Below the pieces are notes generated by a model that was not told where the DNA came from, made no database searches, and saw only the letters and a list, made by a program, of their open reading frames with translations. Positions 8,322-61,366 of a DNA stretch of 64,000 nucleotides are shown piece after piece (within the stretch, counting starts at the first letter, position 1; every line of letters begins with the position of its first letter). The stretch lies in the sequence record NC_031934.1. One strand, 5' to 3'. A program made the position numbers and the translations under genes. The DNA is from Escherichia phage MX01.

Positions 8322-8557
8322 TTAACGTACCTCATAAGGTCTCGGATTTGGCCGACGGTGTAGTCTTCAATATAAACCGAAGAGATATTGTCGTCCATCA
8401 GATTTTGTACTGCAATAAAATCACTTTCAATCTCTTTAAGAGAGTTCAGGACAGTATGGGCCTTTTGCCTAATGCTGATATTATTTTGGTTGACCTTAAT
8501 AATATATTCAGTTTCAAATTTCAACTTATAAAATTGGTCTTTGGTTACTTTAATCAT
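8318..8557 (-). CDS. hypothetical protein, about 79 aa
   Basis: Start moved to internal ATG with GAGGA SD to avoid overlap with dda. Confidence 0.45.
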   Translation of the reverse strand: MIKVTKDQFYKLKFETEYIIKVNQNNISIRQKAHTVLNSLKEIESDFIAVQNLMDDNISSVYIEDYTVGQIRDLMRYVK

Positions 8558-8564
8558 ATTTTCC

Positions 8565-9896
8565 TCAAACGTAATAGGCATCAGTACGAGCACGAGTAAT
8601 ACTAACATAAGCTAGCTGTGAAGCTAAACTCACATCAGCCATATGCATACACGGGGTATAGATGAAACTGTTCTGGACTGTGAGGCCCTGCGATTTATGA
8701 ACAGTGCTCACCGGAAGAGCTCGAACCTTAGTAAACATTCTCTTAGCTTTCCAAAAATCAGCCCACTTAGGTTTCTTACCCGTTCCACGCATGGCTTTGT
8801 ATTCAGTAGCAACCTTAGCCAAGAAATAATGGAACTTCTCGACTGAAGCCTCATCGATGACCTTTAAATGCTCTACATAGTACTCGTCATCTTCATCGAT
8901 AGATTCTACTTGAAGGTCCCAGTAATTAATCATTTGACGAGTGCCTACATCCTTGGCAGACAAGAACAATGAGGTGTGGTTCACATCCAGAATACGAACC
9001 ATTTGGCCATTATTAAAAATGGTTTCAGAGAATTTCTTGCCGTCGTATTCAAGTTCCTTCATAAAAGGCTCTTGCATTACTAGGATTTCACCCTTAATAT
9101 AAGGCGCATCGGTTTCATAAAGCTTTTTACGAATAATACTATTCAGCTTTTCAACCGATTTATTTGTATAAGCAAACATCCTATTCTCAAACAGTGCATC
9201 AGCATCCTTTACGATGGAAAAATAATTCATCATAAAATCTTTTAATGCTGTTTGGGATTTAAAACCGTGGACCCCGTGGTCTTCGAATATACAATCTCTA
9301 AACCATCCACCATTACGGATTTCAGTAGCCACCTCAATGATAGGAGCATTACTACGCATCACTTCAGTCAAATGTAATTGTTTGATTTTTGGATGCGTAA
9401 AGAATGGAGACAACTGCGGACTACCATCACTTCCAGGTTCCACTGGCTGTAGCTGAGCTCTGTCGCCAATCCCTAATACAGTACACCACGGTGGCACGGA
9501 AGATTCGATAATCTTAAACAGCTTACCGTCAATCATCGAGCCTTCATCAACAACCAGCACATTACATTTGCTCAAGTCAGGAGCTTCGCGCTGTTCAAAG
9601 ATGTCCTGGTCTTCGTATGTGGTAGGGTTAATCTTTAAGATTCGATGGATTGTTGATGCTTCTTGACCTGCGAGTTTCGACAACACCTTTTTGGCCGCAT
9701 GGGTGGGTGCAGTCAAAATAACTCCGAGTTCACCGTTCTTGACTAGATGGTCAAGAATAAATTTGGTAAGGGTTGTTTTACCCGTACCAGCAGGGCCGTT
9801 CAATGTAATCCATTCGCCCTTACGTCGTTTAATAGCTTCAATGATTTCTTTAAAAGCCGTCCTCTGGCCGATGTTCAAGTCTTCAAATGTAATCAT
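8565..9896 (-). CDS. dda: Dda 5'-3' DNA helicase (SF1)
   Basis: 443 aa; Walker A GPAGTGKTT; strong similarity to recalled T4 Dda. Confidence 0.9.
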   Translation of the reverse strand: MITFEDLNIGQRTAFKEIIEAIKRRKGEWITLNGPAGTGKTTLTKFILDHLVKNGELGVILTAPTHAAKKVLSKLAGQEASTIHRILKINPTTYEDQDIFEQREAPDLSKCNVLVVDEGSMIDGKLFKIIESSVPPWCTVLGIGDRAQLQPVEPGSDGSPQLSPFFTHPKIKQLHLTEVMRSNAPIIEVATEIRNGGWFRDCIFEDHGVHGFKSQTALKDFMMNYFSIVKDADALFENRMFAYTNKSVEKLNSIIRKKLYETDAPYIKGEILVMQEPFMKELEYDGKKFSETIFNNGQMVRILDVNHTSLFLSAKDVGTRQMINYWDLQVESIDEDDEYYVEHLKVIDEASVEKFHYFLAKVATEYKAMRGTGKKPKWADFWKAKRMFTKVRALPVSTVHKSQGLTVQNSFIYTPCMHMADVSLASQLAYVSITRARTDAYYV

Positions 9897-22518: not shown

Positions 22519-23412
22519 TTAAAGGACCACGTCCTCATAACTTGGCATTTCGTGCTCAGAATGGATGTGGGCACCGAAATAAATGAATTCAGCCAGACCA
22601 GGATGGAATACTAAACTGGGATTCTCATGATAAATGATATGAGGTCTTGATTTCAGAATCTGATAATATTCAACCTTACTCGGTTTGAATTTAATAATCT
22701 CTACATCAGGACGATGGTCTTCACGCTTAAATGAATCATTCGGATCGGTGATATAAAGGCGAGAACCTTCAGCCGCAGCTTGGTCTACAACTCTTTCGAA
22801 TTGATAGCATTTATCTGAGATACGGAATGGATGGAAAATACCATCAATTTTAATAGGCGCTAGACCTTCAGAGTAACGCTCAATTACTGCGGGATTAATT
22901 ACCTTTTGGTCTACAAAAATCTTATCAGAGGACGCACCTCGTGACACCAGGACGTCTTTCTGACATTGATTCAAGACTGTAGTATAAATCGAACGTTCAA
23001 CTGAACCCACGTCGGTATCAATAAACTCATCGATGTAATAACGAGGAACTTCAGGGTCCATTGTAATGTTAAAGTTGAATTGTACGGTATGAGCACCATC
23101 ATAACCTGTGATATCGGTTACCAATCCTGAGCAGTCATAGTATTCGATTAACGAATCAACAACGAACTCATTTTCAGACCAAAAATGTTTACGAGTTTCA
23201 TAAGCATTTTCTTTATACCAAAGAGGTACAAAATTCAGTTCAGGAAATAATTCAATGCATTCTTTGATATCGCTCGAATTTCTAGGATAAGCCAGATAAT
23301 CACCTGGGCGAGCACGGTTTAAATGGAGTTGAAAATTGCCGTCCTTAAGGACAGCATATTCACCTGTTTCGTAACTACGCATACTGAAAATAGGAACGAT
23401 AAACAAACTCAT
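22519..23412 (-). CDS. putative hmC-DNA sugar transferase, 297 aa (occupies the T4 beta-gt position)
   Basis: Last gene of the 5-gene coupled operon; ATGA overlap with upstream gene; function inferred from synteny only. Confidence 0.55.
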   Translation of the reverse strand: MSLFIVPIFSMRSYETGEYAVLKDGNFQLHLNRARPGDYLAYPRNSSDIKECIELFPELNFVPLWYKENAYETRKHFWSENEFVVDSLIEYYDCSGLVTDITGYDGAHTVQFNFNITMDPEVPRYYIDEFIDTDVGSVERSIYTTVLNQCQKDVLVSRGASSDKIFVDQKVINPAVIERYSEGLAPIKIDGIFHPFRISDKCYQFERVVDQAAAEGSRLYITDPNDSFKREDHRPDVEIIKFKPSKVEYYQILKSRPHIIYHENPSLVFHPGLAEFIYFGAHIHSEHEMPSYEDVVL

Positions 23413-24107
23413 TTCAGGAATCCTCGAACGTAGTCAAAATCACGTTCAAACACGTGTGCACTAACCATAGTATGGGAATATGTACCCAGACCAACACCAC
23501 ACTGTTCGGCAATAAAGGCCATCAGTTTACCCTGCAGATAGAAATCCAGCTGCATAACGATAGCACAGTTCTGTGAACGCATATGAGTGTGTGCATACAG
23601 ACGTCCATCACGAATATAATATGTTACCGAATCGGTACACGGATATTCTAGGGATTCGTCAGAATCAAGGAGTGCTTGGTCTTGTTCTTGGAGAATCTGG
23701 AACACAACTCTTCGCGAGTTAGGCTTTTCTTTAAGCTCTTTAAGTAGGGCTGGGAGTTGGGCCACAATTCGAGGTCCATAGAAAGTGTTGAAGTTTGCAG
23801 GCAATACGTCACTTTTCGGCTTATCAATGAACTTAGCAACATTAGGGTATTCCTTAAATGCTTCGGCTGCGTCAGTACCACCAGAAATCATAAATTTCCA
23901 GAAAGATTCGGCATAATCATAGTTGATACGATTAATACGAGGGTCGGTGAATTTATAGGTGCTTGCATCCAGTACTTCTACCGAAGCAGAACCAATTTCA
24001 TAACAACGGCCGATACGAGAATCAACTGCAAACTGTGGAGCTTCCAGGATTTCTTCGTTCATTTGTTTAAACGCGTTTTCAAAACTAACAGCGGTAATGT
24101 GTTTCAT
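23409..24107 (-). CDS. 42: thymidylate-synthase-fold pyrimidine hydroxymethylase (dCMP hydroxymethylase-like)
   Basis: 232 aa; YPCTDSVTYYIRDGRL...MRSQN resembles TS/dCMP-HMase active-site region. Confidence 0.65.
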   Translation of the reverse strand: MKHITAVSFENAFKQMNEEILEAPQFAVDSRIGRCYEIGSASVEVLDASTYKFTDPRINRINYDYAESFWKFMISGGTDAAEAFKEYPNVAKFIDKPKSDVLPANFNTFYGPRIVAQLPALLKELKEKPNSRRVVFQILQEQDQALLDSDESLEYPCTDSVTYYIRDGRLYAHTHMRSQNCAIVMQLDFYLQGKLMAFIAEQCGVGLGTYSHTMVSAHVFERDFDYVRGFLK

Positions 24108-24640
24108 TTATTCACCTTATTTTCAATATATTCATTCAGACGTTTTAATTCTACCATATCAACATTAAGCAAATTATTATGGCCGTCGTGATTTAAGATT
24201 TTAAACACGTTTTCAAAACATGTTTCATACTTCTGGATAGTTAGGTTGAACTCATCTTTGGTTAATTTAATAAGGTCATCTTCGAAGTCTTCATCTAATG
24301 GGTTACGGGTTAAAATAACCTCAATAATATTGAATTCAGATTTAAACCCTTTCCAATCTTCCAGTTCTACATAAGGGTCCATTTCACCACGAAGGAATCC
24401 TGAGTAAACAATATTACTAGGATATCCACGGTCTAAGATGTAGACAAAATTAGGGTCTAAAAACTTATATAAGGTTTCGACTAAAGCCTTATCATTATCA
24501 GTCCCTATTGAAATGCACTTACCATTAATCTTTTTAGGGAAATCGATAAGACGATATTTCTTATCAGATAAAAGTGATTCAATTAAAGTAGACTTCCCGG
24601 AATTATCCGGGCCGTCGATAACAATGATTTTTGGTTTCAC
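24104..24640 (-). CDS. P-loop kinase (nucleoside/nucleotide-kinase-like), 178 aa
   Basis: Walker A IVIDGPDNSGKST at N-terminus; ATGA-coupled on both sides. Confidence 0.65.
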   Translation of the reverse strand: MKPKIIVIDGPDNSGKSTLIESLLSDKKYRLIDFPKKINGKCISIGTDNDKALVETLYKFLDPNFVYILDRGYPSNIVYSGFLRGEMDPYVELEDWKGFKSEFNIIEVILTRNPLDEDFEDDLIKLTKDEFNLTIQKYETCFENVFKILNHDGHNNLLNVDMVELKRLNEYIENKVNK

Positions 24641-24996
24641 GGATGATATGCCTTATAGGTTTCAAGAGTTCCTTCACGAACCATTTCTTTAAAATGGTCA
24701 GGACGGATTGCTCGGTCATCGATGATAAAAGTATAACTCGGCTTATGTGTAAGCAGATTATGATATTTCAATCCAATCTTTTCAAGGTTCTTAACCAATG
24801 CAGGAACTACTTCAACCAAGATTCGACCCGGGCCACATGAAGTCATACCACGAGCAGTGAACAATGTAATCTCATGGCCTTCATCATAAAGCTTATTAAT
24901 CATGGACACCATTTCGGTGTCCGGTTTAAAGTTTTCGTAATCACGGTCGTGGTTCCAAACCGTGATTGTGTTATCGATATCAAAACACAGATGCAT
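24637..24996 (-). CDS. HAD-superfamily phosphatase, about 119 aa
   Basis: HAD motif I FDIDNT near N-terminus; start set to ATG sharing a base with upstream stop. Confidence 0.6.
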   Translation of the reverse strand: MHLCFDIDNTITVWNHDRDYENFKPDTEMVSMINKLYDEGHEITLFTARGMTSCGPGRILVEVVPALVKNLEKIGLKYHNLLTHKPSYTFIIDDRAIRPDHFKEMVREGTLETYKAYHP

Positions 24997-26669
24997 TAAA
25001 TTTTCTTCCATTGTTTGTGGAGTTCAGTAGAACCTGTAGGTTTATATTTTACACCAGTTTCTTGGTCAAGCAAAACCCACTTATCAGGACAACGAGTAAT
25101 AATTTGGGCCGTAATAGGGTCGCGAACTTCATCAACGAATTCACCTGTGATAAGCTTACGCTTACGAGGGTGCCGCTTCAGCAGCACACTCAGTTGATAT
25201 AAACCATTGTAATAAGCACCCAGAGCTTTCAGAGGGTTATTTTTAAAGTAACCTGCTAATGCCATCCAGATAACAGCAATCCAGAGCTTGTGCTTAAATG
25301 TACACATCGGAATATCATCTAAAGGCATAACCTTTTCAATATCAACGAATACACGAGTTCCGTTACGAGTTAAGCCACCCCATAGAGGGTCAGAGTTAAA
25401 TTTGTCATAACCATCGATAGAATAAAGCACCTTAGCTTCATCATAAATCGCAGGGCCTTTAGAACTATTACCAAAATAACCACGTGGGTCGATGATTTTA
25501 ATATTACCTTCGTCCGACAACATAATATTACTGTAGTGCGGGTCGCCATGAATAAGTTGGTACGGTTCTTTATGTTCAGACAGAATTTCTAAGGCGTGAC
25601 GAAGAAGTTTTTCTGGGTCGCCTACCTTGAAGTCGTTAACATGGGTAATACCCTGTGGAGCAAAGCCTTCAATCAATCCGGCAATAGAAGCATTACGAAT
25701 AAGGACCTTGTCCAATACTTCTTTCTTAACATCAGAATACCATTGCTCATCGGACGGATTATCGATAGTTCCACCGAACGAACGTAATGCACTAATAACC
25801 TTATAAACCATTAGGACTTTAGTTTCTTTAGACATAAACCGGTAGGCATCTGCCATGGTTCGACCAAAGATACGTTCCATTTTAATGAATTCACCTGGAG
25901 CAAAGTCTACAATGCTAGGAACGAATTCAGAATCAATAGAATTGTACCAATTGATTTCTTTAGATTGGATTTCTTTACCTAATTCGTTTGTAGGTACTTT
26001 AATAGCTAGATTCTCAGTGAACTCTAATTTATTAAATTCACGGTTAATTTCAGAATCTTCATGGGCCTTAGCCAGTTTCAGTTTGTCACCAACATCAACT
26101 ACAAAGTCTAACTTACGTTCAGTCAAATGGACCATTGAATCCAGGTTGTCGGCAAGGTCTTCACCGTAATTAGAACGGTCGAAACCTGCCCAATTAGCCA
26201 CCTGATACAAACCAACTACACCACCACCGGTACCAATTTCACGCAAGTACGGTTCTTCAAATGTAAAACGACAGTCGGTCCCATAGGTATAACAGTAGTC
26301 GTTATCCCACTCAACTTTATGACCCTCAGGAATGATGTCACACCAGTTAAACAAGACGTTATGCCCGATGATATCTTCAGCAATGCAATCGATGGCATGA
26401 GCTGAACCATTGGCAACATCTACGTTACGAATAATGAATTTAGGCTTATCACTATTAATCATGTTAATGGATTTAATGTAACCCTTAACGAGGTCATTAA
26501 ATTTGCTGTGAATTACCAAAATGATTTCATCTGATTGGTTACTATACAAATCATACAAATGTTTTAGTACTGTATGCTGTTTGTAGTTAACCAATACCTT
26601 CGGGATTTCGTTAGTAATTGGATACAACCGTGAGCCAAGACCTGCGCCTAAAATAACAACCTTTTTCAT
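24996..26669 (-). CDS. bifunctional sugar-1-phosphate nucleotidylyltransferase / APH-like anomeric sugar kinase
   Basis: N-terminal ILGAGLGSRL nucleotidylyltransferase motif; C-terminal HGDPHYSNIML...IIDP kinase motif; start at ATG with GAGGA SD. Confidence 0.75.
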   Translation of the reverse strand: MKKVVILGAGLGSRLYPITNEIPKVLVNYKQHTVLKHLYDLYSNQSDEIILVIHSKFNDLVKGYIKSINMINSDKPKFIIRNVDVANGSAHAIDCIAEDIIGHNVLFNWCDIIPEGHKVEWDNDYCYTYGTDCRFTFEEPYLREIGTGGGVVGLYQVANWAGFDRSNYGEDLADNLDSMVHLTERKLDFVVDVGDKLKLAKAHEDSEINREFNKLEFTENLAIKVPTNELGKEIQSKEINWYNSIDSEFVPSIVDFAPGEFIKMERIFGRTMADAYRFMSKETKVLMVYKVISALRSFGGTIDNPSDEQWYSDVKKEVLDKVLIRNASIAGLIEGFAPQGITHVNDFKVGDPEKLLRHALEILSEHKEPYQLIHGDPHYSNIMLSDEGNIKIIDPRGYFGNSSKGPAIYDEAKVLYSIDGYDKFNSDPLWGGLTRNGTRVFVDIEKVMPLDDIPMCTFKHKLWIAVIWMALAGYFKNNPLKALGAYYNGLYQLSVLLKRHPRKRKLITGEFVDEVRDPITAQIITRCPDKWVLLDQETGVKYKPTGSTELHKQWKKI

Positions 26670-26729
26670 TATCTGTTCCTCAAGTGAATGTAGGTACATT
26701 ATACACTATTTTTAATAAATTGGTATTGC

Positions 26730-58484: not shown

Positions 58485-58644
58485 AGTAGTCTCTTAGTGG
58501 TGGGGCCGTTCCTTGGCACATAATTCGTCCATGTATCCGTATGTAAACCCTTTACCGCACTTGGGCTCGACCTTATTACAGGTAGGGAAAGGTCCATCAC
58601 TCAGAGGACGCGACGTTCATGAGGAGAGGGCCGGCTTGCCTTTA

Positions 58645-58944
58645 TTAGAAAGAACCAGAACCTCTAATTGTGTTCTGGCGACCTTTATTTTCTAATTCAT
58701 AGTCGTCGATTTCGTAGGCTTGTGCTACACCAAAAGCCTTTTTAACTTTAGCTAAAGAGCCTTTAGACGTAACAATATTAAAAGTATTACCTTTGGTAAA
58801 ATCAACCAAATCCACTTGTACACCCTGTTTACCGAGGCTTGCTACAATAGCATCAACATATTCCTGGTCTAAATTGCCTTGAACTCCAATTTGAAATACT
58901 TTAGGAGCTTTGGCTTCTGTAATAAATTCTTGGTAAGTTTTCAT
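58645..58944 (-). CDS. ipII: internal protein with capsid-targeting leader (IPII-like)
   Basis: 99 aa; N-terminus MKTYQEFITEA; own promoter and AAGGA SD. Confidence 0.7.
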   Translation of the reverse strand: MKTYQEFITEAKAPKVFQIGVQGNLDQEYVDAIVASLGKQGVQVDLVDFTKGNTFNIVTSKGSLAKVKKAFGVAQAYEIDDYELENKGRQNTIRGSGSF

Positions 58945-58968
58945 ATTATTCCTTAAGTTGATAGAAGT

Positions 58969-58998
58969 ATTCTATCACGGATTTAATTAAGCGTAAAT
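58969..58998 (-). promoter_or_regulatory. early promoter-like element (ATTTAC-N18-TAGAAT)
   Basis: Upstream of ipII-like gene. Confidence 0.4.
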
Positions 58999-59403
58999 CG
59001 CCTTACCATAATGTTTGTACCAGGTAGGGCGCTGTGCAATTTTTTCGTCCAAACGGGCCTGTGAAATGGCGATAGAAGCTTCGTGAGGAACATAGTCACC
59101 ACGGAATTCCTGAGGAATATCACTAATGTCCCGGACCGTAGTGTCCTTGATATTAAAACCACGTTTTAAACATTCGGCTATAAGCTCGATTTGACGTTTA
59201 CGTAAAAATTCAAGCTTATCGTAAAAGAATGTAACATGACCTGTACCAAGGATAAAAGTAGGACTGATTTTGAAATCACGGACACGTTTACCATTAGCAA
59301 CATGCTTACGAACTGCACCGAAAACACGTGGTAATTCACGGTACTCAGCCATTAAGTGTTGGTCAGCCAATTCAGATACTAAGGTAAGGTTGATACGAGT
59401 CAT
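58987..59403 (-). CDS. denV: endonuclease V (pyrimidine-dimer DNA glycosylase)
   Basis: 138 aa; essentially identical to recalled T4 DenV. Confidence 0.93.
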
Positions 59404-59432
59404 TTTAGTGTTCTCCGTGTTTGTATGAGAAC

Positions 59433-59461
59433 ACTATATCACAGCTGTTGTAAAAGTAAAC
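59433..59461 (-). promoter_or_regulatory. early promoter (GTTTAC-N17-TATAGT)
   Basis: Upstream of denV with GGAGA SD. Confidence 0.55.
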
Positions 59462-59463
59462 TG

Positions 59464-59766
59464 TTATTTAGCTTTAATTGCTTTAGCTGCTTCGGTAGCC
59501 GCTTGCTGAAGGTCATCCATAGACATACCGAACTTAGAAGCAAAGTTATCAATTTTCTTTTCGACAGAATTCAAAGGCTTGGCCTGTTTACCTTCATTAG
59601 CGCCAGGGAGAGCGAGAATACGCTCTTTGTCAATATAAAGGCTTACAAGTTTCTTACGGTCTTTATCTGGCAAATCATGAAATGAATGGGCCTTTTTATT
59701 TACGGCGGCTTCTAATTTACCCGCACTTACTCGCGCTTCGGTGATAAATTCTTGATAGGTTTTCAT
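59464..59766 (-). CDS. internal protein with capsid-targeting leader, 100 aa
   Basis: N-terminus MKTYQEFITEA. Confidence 0.65.
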   Translation of the reverse strand: MKTYQEFITEARVSAGKLEAAVNKKAHSFHDLPDKDRKKLVSLYIDKERILALPGANEGKQAKPLNSVEKKIDNFASKFGMSMDDLQQAATEAAKAIKAK

Positions 59767-59807
59767 ATGGGTCCTTTAAATGTAAATAAGCCTAAGTATA
59801 GGCTTTA

Positions 59808-60404
59808 TTAATTACCACGGGCTGCATTAGCAACGGCGTAAGCGTACTGAATATTAGCGTCTTTAAACGTACCTTTAGAGGTATCTATTTCTGCCTTAAA
59901 GCCGCCTTTAGCCATAACATCAGCAAATTCTTTACGGAAAGTCATTGCATCAAGACCTTTCCATGTTGATTTGTGCTTGGCAAATTCAAGACCAGCGAAG
60001 TTGACAGCTTTAGCCAATTTATTATCAATAGTCCATTTACCTGCTTTAGGTACAAACACCGGGCCTTTCTGTTTAGAGAACAGTTTTAAATTCCAGCGAC
60101 GAAGGTCACCGTCAGCTTTAACAAAAGCTGCGTCCAAGTTACTAGCAACAACATCTTGGATATGGGCAAATTTAAGTCCATCAGCTTCAATATTTAGGTC
60201 GTTACGCCAGCGAAGTCCTTCCCAGGCGAAAGCTTTAAAGTCGGAAGCTTTTGTAGCCAAGTACCGTTCAATAGGAGCTGTTTTAGCGTCAAAACCGTTT
60301 CCTGGGTTGTCAACGCCGTTTCCTTTGTAAGTCCACTCATCTTTATTAATGCCTTGGACCTTTCCTACAGAAGCTTCGGCGATAAATTCTTTATACGTTT
60401 TCAT
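59808..60404 (-). CDS. ipIII: internal protein with capsid-targeting leader (IPIII-like by size)
   Basis: 198 aa; N-terminus MKTYKEFIAEA; own promoter and AAGGA SD. Confidence 0.65.
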   Translation of the reverse strand: MKTYKEFIAEASVGKVQGINKDEWTYKGNGVDNPGNGFDAKTAPIERYLATKASDFKAFAWEGLRWRNDLNIEADGLKFAHIQDVVASNLDAAFVKADGDLRRWNLKLFSKQKGPVFVPKAGKWTIDNKLAKAVNFAGLEFAKHKSTWKGLDAMTFRKEFADVMAKGGFKAEIDTSKGTFKDANIQYAYAVANAARGN

Positions 60405-60457
60405 ATGGGTTCCTTAAAGGTAAATATTTTAATTGGTCTGTTCAAGTAACTGTAGAT

Positions 60458-60486
60458 ATACTATCACAATTCTAGGAGATGTAAAC
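60458..60486 (-). promoter_or_regulatory. early promoter (GTTTAC-N17-TAGTAT)
   Basis: Upstream of ipIII-like gene. Confidence 0.55.
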
Positions 60487-60885
60487 TTATTTATAGGTCT
60501 TCATCCAATTCTTGAACAAAGCCGCGACGTCTTTCTCTTTAACGTTCAGTTTAAGGTCTAACATTTTACCACCGGCAGCACGTGTCTGACGAATCTTAGC
60601 AGTACCGGTTTCGCCATTCCACTCAACATAATACTGTCCAGTGTTCATTGCAATACCATCGCCGTAGTCTTCATTTTTAGAAGTTGTGAAGGCCAGCTTC
60701 ATAGTCTTAGATACACGAGCCTGCATGCCAGTCTGAAGGGCATTACGAACGCGAATAACCTGAGGAGTGGCCTGGGTCAGGTTCTCATTCAGTTCTTCAG
60801 TGAACTCTTCAGATTCAAACATCGCCAAAAGTTCTTTAGATGCAGGAATTACATTCTCTGCGATAAATTCATTATAAGTTTTCAT
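60487..60885 (-). CDS. internal protein with capsid-targeting leader, 132 aa
   Basis: N-terminus [11 protein letters not shown]; overlaps lysozyme stop by 14 bp. Confidence 0.6.
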
Positions 60886-61366
60886 ATGCTTTCCAAGTAC
60901 CTGTTTTAAATGTGGAAATCACGCGCTTAGCACGATTAGGAGTTTGTTTATACCAACGGGATTGAGCCAGGTTAACTGCTGCATCATCCCAACGTTTTTG
61001 CTGAAGCATACGCAGAGAGTTAGTGAACCCTGCTACGCCTGCTTCACCCATTTGGAAGACCATGTTAATTAAAGCACAACGACGAACTTCGTCCAGTACA
61101 TCATAAACAGGTTTCAATTTAGGATTACGCAGAATAGCTCTACGAGCATTTTCAACCGATCGGTTAAAGAGTTGCTCAGCTTCAGCCATAGTAATACGAC
61201 CGTTGCAAACTCGGCCCATAAGCTTATCGAGTTCAGCGCGAGCAACATCTTTAGATGGGTTCTTGGTAATCAACTGACCAATGCCAATAGTCCAATAACC
61301 TTCGGTGTCTTTATAAAGATTTAAATCAAGACCTTCGTCTTGACGTAACATATCAAAAATATCCAT
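60872..61366 (-). CDS. e: lysozyme (endolysin)
   Basis: 164 aa; strong similarity to recalled T4 lysozyme; TATAAATA late promoter plus AGGAGG SD. Confidence 0.93.

Follow-up and report, generated by a model that had tools for sequence, protein, structure and literature searches.

The e-denV internal-protein locus of Escherichia phage MX01 and a leader-bearing candidate internal-protein family

The e-denV region of MX01

Escherichia phage MX01 is a JS98-like, T4-type phage of the genus Dhakavirus, and the window that we analysed, a 64-kb (64,000-nucleotide) stretch of its record NC_031934.1, contains the e-denV internal-protein (IP) region. Four minus-strand open reading frames (ORFs) in this region open with MKTY(Q/K/N)EFI(T/A)E, at 58645-58944, 59464-59766, 59808-60404 and 60487-60885, as an earlier note on this DNA had reported, and when all six frames of the window were scanned with the pattern MKT[YF]xEF, exactly four matches appeared, each at the start of one of these ORFs. 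The four sit between e and vs.8, on both sides of denV, in the same neighbourhood as in T4. Gene e (T4-type lysozyme; 60872..61366, minus strand; ORF list and domain match) forms the upstream border of the locus, while denV (endonuclease V; 58987..59403, minus strand; Pfam Pyr_excise 1.4e-14; phrog_1183, 2e-62) is a non-member within the cassette array, placed between the ORFs of 100 and 99 residues. The head module (portal, core proteins, scaffold and protease) lies outside the MX01 window and is encoded by a 96%-identical relative, UGJNEcP3, whose protease matches T4 gp21 (PDB 5JBL, E 7e-124).

None of the four IP proteins had a Pfam or NCBIfam match above threshold. Their assignments are given here from alignments and PHROG profiles. 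The 198-residue ORF (MKTYKEFIAEAS; 59808..60404, minus strand; phrog_5341, 3e-115) is 87% identical to T4 IPIII over 187 residues without its leader (7e-122) and also 87% at full length. The 100-residue ORF (MKTYQEFITEAR; 59464..59766, minus strand; phrog_7857, 3e-54) is 94% identical to T4 IPII over 89 residues without the leader (2e-59) and 94% over the full 100. Judged by these alignments, the two are direct orthologs of T4 IpII and IpIII. The earlier note had taken the 99- and 198-residue ORFs as those of IPII- and IPIII-like size; the second assignment stands, whereas the IpII counterpart is the 100-residue ORF. It had also counted two extra members, and two do exist, but they are the ORFs of 99 and 132 residues rather than those of 100 and 132. 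The locus is thus not merely a pair of IPII and IPIII orthologs.

The 99-residue protein (MKTYQEFITEAK; 58645..58944, minus strand) matches phrog_2667, 'internal head protein' (2e-42), and is 84% identical to VR5 Ip7, 92% to VR7 'Ip7' and about 50% to the Ip7 proteins of T2, RB69 and CC31. Its best structural match in BFVD is 'Ip7 protein [phage MX01]'. These matches place it in Ip7, a named family with 282 phage records (those of T2, RB69, CC31 and VR7 among them), and it is thus not a new member. A profile search of Ip7 against PDB sequences found no match, and a PHROG match to 'inhibitor of MrcBC restriction' was weak (E 0.086) and was treated as chance. The 132-residue ORF, here called w132 (60487..60885, minus strand; ORF list; phrog_15461, unknown function), belongs to a small family whose 48 phage records all carry the label 'hypothetical protein'. 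It is a candidate internal protein by virtue of its leader, not labelled as such in public phage records or in PHROGs.

The locus is therefore the known variable T4-like IP locus, with IpII, IpIII and Ip7 orthologs and the leader-bearing w132. According to Repoila et al. 1994 and Comeau et al. 2007, as cited in PMC2839356 and PMC12373910, T-even phages have two polymorphic IP loci (e-denV and 57B-tRNA) with more than 30 known variants. In the parts of this literature available to us, the number, order and identity of the leader-bearing ORFs vary as they do here, Ip7 is a named variant, and flanking early-promoter and stem-loop sequences are proposed to mediate shuffling; the w132 family, although unannotated in public phage records and PHROGs, may itself be among the more than 30 variants. 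In contrast to T4, where both slots are empty, MX01 has two more cassettes, of which the first is fused with the 3' end of e and the second lies on the downstream side of denV. Once the first 11 residues are removed, the cargo parts of the four MX01 proteins show no mutual similarity. We consider it probable that the four cassettes carry independent cargos, with only the N-terminal 10-residue capsid-targeting sequence (CTS) MKTYxEFIxE in common, and that their products would be packaged, processed and injected as in T4, with counter-defence as their likely role.

The capsid-targeting leader

The CTS occupies codons 1-10 of each ORF, at 60856..60885 in w132, 60375..60404 in IpIII, 59737..59766 in IpII and 58915..58944 in Ip7, all on the minus strand. 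The targeting residues Y4 and F7 and the processing residues I8 (I or L) and E10 (Glu and not Asp), which were defined experimentally for IPIII (review PMC9026906), are present in all four ORFs, bearing out the earlier identification of the leader with the T4 signal; T4 IPI, IPII and IPIII carry the same leader with the same four residues in the same e ... denV neighbourhood. In T4, the 10 CTS residues alone are enough to package foreign proteins (PMC9026906), so that any late-expressed carrier should be packaged. As for T4 IPIII, each protein would be held by Y4 and F7 on the scaffolding core while the prohead assembles, and a gp21-type prohead protease would then cut after E10 at the (I/L)-x-E site, for which the predicted cut is ITE|A in two of the ORFs, and IAE|A and IAE|N in the other two. 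The freed mature proteins would remain among the packaged DNA and enter the host with it. The predicted mature forms are small, like those of the T4 proteins. IpII (net charge +6) and IpIII (+8) would be basic, the charge of w132 would depend on its processing (see below), and mature Ip7 would be nearly neutral (net +1, pI 8.2), unlike the classical basic internal proteins. A shortage of (L/I)xE motifs in the predicted mature parts, considered as a possible mark of exposure to the protease, did not reach significance (none observed against 2.2 expected, with none in 9.6% of shuffles either) and was dropped.

At the DNA level, the leader together with the ribosome-binding region forms a four-copy direct repeat of 38 nt with 71-87% identity. 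This raises the question of whether the repeated 5' sequence is kept for a nucleic-acid reason, such as translation initiation or a recombination site, and not as a peptide signal; the extension of the repeat upstream into the Shine-Dalgarno region and the near invariance of the AAA2, GAA6 and TTT7 codons would both fit such an origin. However, among 26 leaders from 16 loci, Y4, F7, (I/L)8 and E10 are invariant in every one, whereas their codons vary synonymously, with four codons used for Thr3, two for Tyr4, four across Ile/Leu8 and two for Glu10. Positions 3, 4, 8, 9 and 10 thus undergo synonymous or conservative changes with the amino-acid pattern retained, which argues for selection on the peptide, and the function of the CTS peptide has been demonstrated experimentally in T4 (PMC9026906). 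We regard a purely nucleic-acid explanation as highly improbable.

Spacers, promoters and rearrangement of the cassettes

The MX01 IP ORFs are flanked by early-promoter-like sequences with an adjacent or overlapping stem-loop. The w132/IpIII spacer holds an early-promoter-like TTTACA-16-TAGTAT preceded by TG (60458..60485, minus strand; a consensus match only). Between IpIII and IpII lies a stem-loop with a 7-bp stem followed by ATTTACATTT (59788..59805, minus strand; fold z-score -2.2). The IpII/denV spacer (59404..59463, minus strand) combines an early-promoter-like TTTACT-16-TATAGT with a 10-bp stem-loop (z-score -3.5, none of 200 shuffles folding as well), and the denV/Ip7 spacer (58945..58997, minus strand) contains TTTACG-17-TAGAAT with an inverted repeat, GATAGAA..TTCTATC, that overlaps the -10 hexamer (z-score -2.5). 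Altogether, three promoter-like sites with a preceding TG lie in spacers, and for three of the four spacers the fold is better than that of shuffled sequences (z -2.2 to -3.5). The promoter-like sites of the region are not above chance in number (7 found, 6.2 expected), so that they count as consensus matches only. The 160-nt gap downstream of Ip7 does not fold better than shuffles, and an Rfam search of the IP locus gave no match.

Comparison of 11 phages revealed ten different cassette orders, and the breakpoints relative to MX01 map to these spacers. The breakpoint at 60474 (against JS10 and IME281) coincides with the promoter-like site in the w132/IpIII spacer, that at 59794 (against QL01 and WG01) falls inside the IpIII/IpII stem-loop, and the left breakpoint of several rearrangements, 59406/59407, lies inside the IpII/denV spacer. 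The leader itself is a further junction: in the IpII genes of IME341 and IME08 the leader is a hybrid, identical to the w132 leader over its first 24 nt, and the homology blocks have a 27-nt overlap exactly in the leader. Related phages thus reshuffle the array by homologous recombination in the leader-coding repeat and in the early-promoter/stem-loop spacers. A similar arrangement is known from the PeSL cassettes of RB49 and phi1, in which promoter-plus-stem-loop spacers are sites of homologous recombination (Arbiol et al. 2010, PMC2839356), and in both systems short spacers let single accessory ORFs be inserted, deleted or replaced. The MX01 locus differs in that its promoter-like sites resemble T4 early promoters (GTTTAC... 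at -35), in that its stems are AT-rich, and in that the 30-nt leader coding repeat also serves as a crossover site. The locus illustrates well how close phages can exchange such cargos through a short coding repeat, 30 nt long, and through small spacers with a promoter and a stem-loop.

The w132 family and candidate counter-defence roles

The w132 family groups into 18 clusters at 90% identity, with only 7 matches among 1.84 billion representatives, and the named genera in which it was found are Dhakavirus, Marfavirus and Mosigvirus. In MX01, 14 nt at the start of w132 are shared with the end of e, so that the last codons of e (...GCA TAT GAA AAC TTA TAA) include the ATG of the w132 leader and the codons that come next. 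Such embedding, the evident use of the leader as a crossover site and the lack of any IP annotation in the 48 phage records would all be expected if the leader were a by-product of recombination, a hitch-hiking 5' handle on an ordinary early protein that is not packaged. The homologs speak against this: at 40-57% identity (Serratia, Erwinia and metagenomic sequences) they retain the leader M-K-(T/S)-Y-x-(E/Q)-F-(I/L)-x-E, although the residues that follow diverge or are deleted. With the targeting and processing residues of w132 also intact, we consider a by-product leader unlikely and continue with w132 as a candidate packaged protein.

The same conservation pattern points to a second processing site. 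In the w132 family, E34 and N35 are invariant and L32 and N33 nearly so, whereas residues 11-31 are variable, or absent in distant homologs. We therefore predict, from conservation, charge and the structure model, that LNE|N is a second prohead-protease site, with its LNE at codons 32-34 (60784..60792, minus strand). Residues 11-34 carry a net charge of -6 and residues 35-132 form a 98-residue segment with a pI of 9.9 and a net charge of +8, which the protein would reach only if E34 is also cut, the charge otherwise being +2; residues 1-34 have a pLDDT below 50 in the model. The protein would then be cut twice, after E10 and E34, losing the acidic spacer and leaving a basic protein of 98 residues. 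Mature w132 cut in this way would be basic, like IPII* and IPIII*. An 'LNE' second site also recurs in three unrelated cassettes.

Precedents exist for both parts of this prediction. In T4, the IPI propeptide is cleaved after residue 19 and is thus longer than the 10-residue CTS, and Alt is processed by gp21 at both termini, i.e., at more than one site. The w132 spacer differs from these in that its 24 residues are acidic overall (net -6) and end in a conserved LNE|N, and a bipartite propeptide of this kind was not found documented for classical internal proteins in the literature searched. The AlphaFold model of w132 as a whole was of low confidence (pLDDT 56), with no functional hint from fold or profile searches; its BFVD matches were not meaningful apart from its own Serratia homolog, and a profile search against PDB sequences returned only sub-threshold flagellin matches (E 0.04).

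What the packaged proteins might do is suggested by T4, whose Ip1, Ip2 and Ip3 each inhibit one distinct GmrSD type IV restriction enzyme (PMC12373910). By sequence identity alone, this activity would carry over to MX01 IpII and IpIII. MX01, however, appears to make an RB69-type modified cytosine rather than the glucosyl-hmC of T4, so that the targets assigned in T4 may not apply to MX01. By analogy, Ip7 and w132 would most likely be injected counter-defence proteins of the same kind, and the view that extra internal proteins are injected anti-defence effectors has already been published (PMC3012670, PMC2839356, PMC12373910). Ip4-10 of T4-like phages gave no reproducible inhibition of GmrSD variants, and Ip7 gave no reproducible match with 15 GmrSD groups (PMC12373910); no mention of w132 was found in the GmrSD-inhibitor literature available to us, nor a usable virion proteome of a Dhakavirus or of VR7 in the searchable literature.

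These results leave some room, which we consider limited, for Ip7 and w132 to be packaged through the leader without being counter-defence proteins, acting instead in generic DNA-associated head filling or charge balancing, or in another early role after injection. The earliest descriptions of internal proteins are of basic, DNA-binding proteins abundant in the head, at about 300 copies each (PMC9026906), and, besides the lack of reproducible GmrSD inhibition by ip4-10, the fold and profile searches gave no hint of an inhibitor for either protein. On the other hand, all three T4 internal proteins of known function are inhibitors of type IV restriction (PMC12373910), Ip7 is not basic, and the presence, absence and order of the cassettes vary among near-identical phages, a pattern of accessory arms-race genes and not of structural need. 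We accordingly favour counter-defence for Ip7 and w132. Dhakavirus, Marfavirus and Mosigvirus, the named genera in which the w132 family was found, reportedly all have the RB69-type 5-hydroxycytosine arabinosylation cluster. A more speculative proposal, to which we give little credence at present, is that the w132 family is an unrecognised injected internal protein whose bipartite propeptide (the CTS and the acidic 24-residue spacer) masks a basic effector until the LNE|N cut, and which, given these genera, could inhibit a host nuclease recognising the RB69-type modification rather than glucosyl-hmC.

Of all phage proteins, the injected internal proteins are the first that host defences encounter, and only recently was it found that each of the three from T4 neutralises its own GmrSD type IV restriction enzyme. 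A catalogue of leader-bearing cargos that includes the w132 family would supply ready candidates for orphan inhibitor/nuclease pairs. Current understanding is unchanged by our analysis, which extends the known catalogue by one family and one processing prediction; w132 adds a useful, if unremarkable, entry to the candidate injected anti-restriction proteins.

The C-terminus of w132 reads MKTYK*, which resembles the start of a leader. Its origin as a relic of a downstream leader was considered and rejected, as distant homologs keep a W-(M/L)-K at their C-termini. The coding region of MKTYK* embeds TATAAATA, a T4 late-promoter motif (60488..60495, minus strand; motif match only) in the last w132 codons and upstream of IpIII; only five motifs of the TATAAATA type occur on the minus strand in the 64 kb.

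Four leader-bearing genes around denV

The four ORFs sharing a leader, the 10-residue N-terminal capsid-targeting sequence of T4 internal-protein (IP) type, that the earlier note had placed around denV were all recovered as ORF calls on the minus strand, at 58645-58944 (Ip7, 99 aa), 59464-59766 (IpII, 100 aa), 59808-60404 (IpIII, 198 aa) and 60487-60885 (w132, 132 aa). With denV (58987-59403, minus) between the 100-aa and 99-aa ORFs and the lysozyme gene e (60872-61366, minus) upstream of w132, the order on the transcribed strand is e, 132-aa, 198-aa, 100-aa, denV, 99-aa, vs.8. Over these 3 kb, identity to the Dhakavirus JS98-like phages SHP1, UGJNEcP3, C6, AnYang, JS10 and JS98 is 92-96%, with weaker matches to 721 phage records, and by its sequence the MX01 region is of the JS98-like type, genus Dhakavirus (Straboviridae, Tevenvirinae). 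A 160-nt non-coding gap of somewhat raised G+C (about 0.48) separates the Ip7 stop from the vs.8 start (58485-58644); it has no Rfam match, folds no better than shuffles and is kept in relatives, including VR5, which has no Ip7 there.

All four ORFs start with MKTY(Q/K/N)EFI(T/A)E, and when all six frames of the 64 kb were scanned for MKT[YF]xEF, it occurred in 4 places only, each the first ATG of an ORF. At the DNA level, leader and ribosome-binding region form a 38-nt direct repeat (4 copies, 71-87% identity); minus their first 11 residues, the four proteins share no detectable similarity. In IPIII, the first 10 residues are enough for packaging, residues 4 and 7 being the main targeting determinants and residues 8 and 10 governing processing, which Asp at 10 blocks (PMC9026906, a review of L. 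W. Black's work). Y4, F7, I8 and E10 are present in all four window ORFs. All 26 leaders gathered from 16 loci have M1, K2, Y4, F7 and E10, with I or L at position 8, while codons vary synonymously (four for Thr3, two each for Tyr4 and Glu10) and position 8 uses four codons across Ile/Leu; the constraint therefore acts on the peptide. Head genes lie outside the window; UGJNEcP3, a 96% identical relative, encodes portal, core proteins, scaffold and a protease matching T4 gp21 (PDB 5JBL, E 7e-124). We infer that the four MX01 proteins are packaged, cleaved and injected.

Alignment to T4 bore out the proposal that two ORFs are IPII/IPIII-like: the 100-aa ORF shares 94% identity with T4 IPII and the 198-aa ORF 87% with T4 IPIII, figures that apply to the whole proteins and equally without the leader. 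The 99-aa ORF had been taken as the IPII-sized one; it is instead 84% identical to VR5 'Ip7' and 92% to VR7 Ip7, shares about 50% identity with the CC31, T2 and RB69 proteins named Ip7 or 'internal head protein', and matches phrog_2667 'internal head protein'. Among viral structures, its model is closest to the 'Ip7 protein' of phage MX01, and the CC31 homolog overlaps the annotated 57B gene, i.e., the ipI locus. The earlier size pairing was therefore off by one ORF: two members beyond T4 do exist, the 132-aa protein among them, but the other is the 99-aa Ip7, not the 100-aa ORF.

Exchange of cargo cassettes

We compared the order of cassettes, each a single leader-bearing cargo ORF, from e towards vs.8. 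The window and UGJNEcP3 have 132, IpIII, IpII, denV, Ip7; JS10 has IpIII, 132, denV, Ip7; QL01 132, IpIII, denV, Ip7; WG01 132, IpIII, denV and two leader ORFs of 119 and 85 aa; IME281 132, denV, Ip7; IME341 and IME08 IpII, denV, Ip7; UP19 an 89-aa leader ORF, denV, Ip7; VR5 Ip3, Ip7, denV; T4 IpIII, IpII, denV; and Marfa 131, IpII, denV, IpIII, Ip7.

BLAST breakpoints relative to the window fall at two kinds of site, the leader interior and the spacers. For IME341 and IME08, one homology block covers IpII up to 59769, the next begins at 60862, and the two share 27 nt of leader. The IpII gene of these phages has a hybrid leader: its first 24 nt, like the context overlapping e, are those of the 132-aa gene of the window, and IpII supplies what follows. 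In JS10, the 132 cargo occupies the IpII slot, with the junction within the leader. Spacer breakpoints lie at 59406/59407, 59794 and 60474. The spacers carry T4-type early-promoter-like hexamers (TTTAC.-16/17-TA...T after TG), and three of the four have stem-loops that beat shuffles (z -2.2, -2.5 and -3.5); such a promoter and stem-loop arrangement of IP loci was reportedly described by Repoila et al. At 60872-60885, the next leader begins in another frame inside the final codons of e (GCA TAT GAA AAC TTA TAA), which take in its ATG and first four codons, a fusion also seen in IME341, IME08, IME281, QL01, WG01, UP19 and Marfa irrespective of cargo, whereas in T4, JS10 and VR5 a spacer of about 85 nt takes its place.

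Further leader-bearing ORFs were observed in UGJNEcP3. One of 154 aa (MKTYNEFLTEQ start, annotated hypothetical; 8388-8852 of the UGJNEcP3 stretch, minus, past the window end) lies directly downstream of tRNA genes, outside the two classical IP loci, and two of 90 aa (MKSYQEFIAES) and 73 aa (MKAYQEFITEA) lie beside 57B; such a genome therefore has about seven leader-bearing proteins.

The 132-aa family and its predicted second processing site

The w132 protein belongs to phrog_15461, where no function is assigned, has no Pfam or NCBIfam match, and is labelled hypothetical in all 48 phage records of its family. Homologs occur in Dhakavirus, Klebsiella Marfavirus (about 84%) and one Mosigvirus, and more distantly in Serratia phage 4S (43%) and Erwinia phage Cronus (40%). 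With 18 clusters at 90% identity among 5.8 billion proteins and 7 profile matches among 1.84 billion representatives, this is a very small family.

IpII, IpIII and Ip7 have a single (L/I)xE prohead-protease site apiece, that of the leader; w132 adds a second, with IAE before N (8-10) and LNE before N (32-34). Every aligned family member has E34 and N35, and L32 and N33 hardly change. Residues 11-31 are variable and absent from distant homologs, the Cronus homolog joining its leader directly to the conserved core. Residues 11-34 are acidic (net -6), and residues 35-132 alone would form a 98-aa, 11-kDa protein (pI 9.9, net charge +8), basic and small much like mature T4 IPII and IPIII. In the structure model, the low-confidence stretch coincides with residues 1-34, and three cassettes with unrelated cargo (UP19 89-aa, UGJNEcP3 90-aa, F27 93-aa) also have 'LNE' following their leader. 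On these grounds, we predict a bipartite propeptide that would be taken off by two cuts. The predicted mature parts contain no (L/I)xE site where 2.2 would be expected, a weak depletion that 9.6% of shuffles reproduce.

The w132 model is itself weak (pLDDT 56), suggesting a helix, a 4-5-stranded sheet and a C-terminal helix. Structure and profile searches with w132 and Ip7 gave no functional lead, PDB sequence profiles returning only sub-threshold matches; one aligned w132 residues 32-100 (60586-60792) with the outer-domain region of Salmonella-type flagellin (1UCU, 8FML; E 0.04, 17 bits, below significance). Similarly weak matches link the family profile to short repeats in the long metagenomic proteins P0043 and P0044. 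A third metagenomic protein, P0041 (194 aa), looks like two cassettes fused together, with a degenerate leader (MKSFDQYIMES) and an unrelated N-terminal domain, then a leader-like remnant (MTESVELTES) and a core of the w132 type. The w132 C-terminus, NWMKTYK (60487-60504, minus; coded by ATGAAGACCTATAAATAA), resembles the start of another leader, and this 3' end holds TATAAATA (60488-60495, minus), the late-promoter motif of T4, just upstream of IpIII. As W-(M/L)-K is kept at the C-terminus of distant homologs, it is probably a genuine C-terminus doubling as a predicted promoter.

Likely counter-defence function and DNA modification

The feature is real, right in kind and largely explained by existing knowledge. 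T4 Ip1, Ip2 and Ip3 inhibit one GmrSD variant each (CT596, ECOR21/BrxU, ECOR17 GmrS1+GmrSD2), and GmrSD variants have been proposed as targets of all proteins from both Ip loci (Silas et al. 2025, PMC12373910), thus the earlier note's idea of extra members as injected anti-defence effectors was already published. In the same study, ip4-10 gave no reproducible inhibition against 15 GmrSD groups. The precedent set by the family, together with cassettes that behave like accessory genes, makes counter-defence the most likely candidate role for Ip7 and w132. Arbiol et al. (PMC2839356) cite over 30 variants of IP, and the 132-aa family may already be among them. New here are the correct assignment of the four ORFs, w132 as a leader-bearing family missed by public annotation, its predicted second processing site and the explicit mapping of Dhakavirus breakpoints.

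No T4-type beta-glucosyltransferase was found in the window, including 22519-26699 (minus) from uvsX to the DNA polymerase gene. The T4 gp42 relative, at 25% identity only, is a thymidylate-synthase homolog (23409-24107, minus) with 71% identity to an Acinetobacter phage DLP3 gene annotated thymidylate synthase and about 79% to coliphage and Shigella phage counterparts; the Yersinia phage phiR1-RT counterpart is annotated 'RB69ORF048c'. Gp80 of DLP3 and gp48 of RB69 are thymidylate synthase homologs acting as 5-hydroxy-dCMP synthases in a cytosine arabinosylation pathway common to Dhakaviruses, Marfaviruses and Mosigviruses (PMC13326640, 2026), and 22519-26699 looks like an RB69-type 5-hydroxycytosine arabinosylation cluster. 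With such a cluster and no T4 beta-glucosyltransferase, MX01 virion DNA is probably not glucosyl-hmC, and with a modification that is probably RB69-like, the nucleases met by its internal proteins may differ from those that T4 meets. Read from translations alone, kinase-like, phosphatase-like and nucleotidyltransferase-like ORFs follow the thymidylate-synthase homolog.
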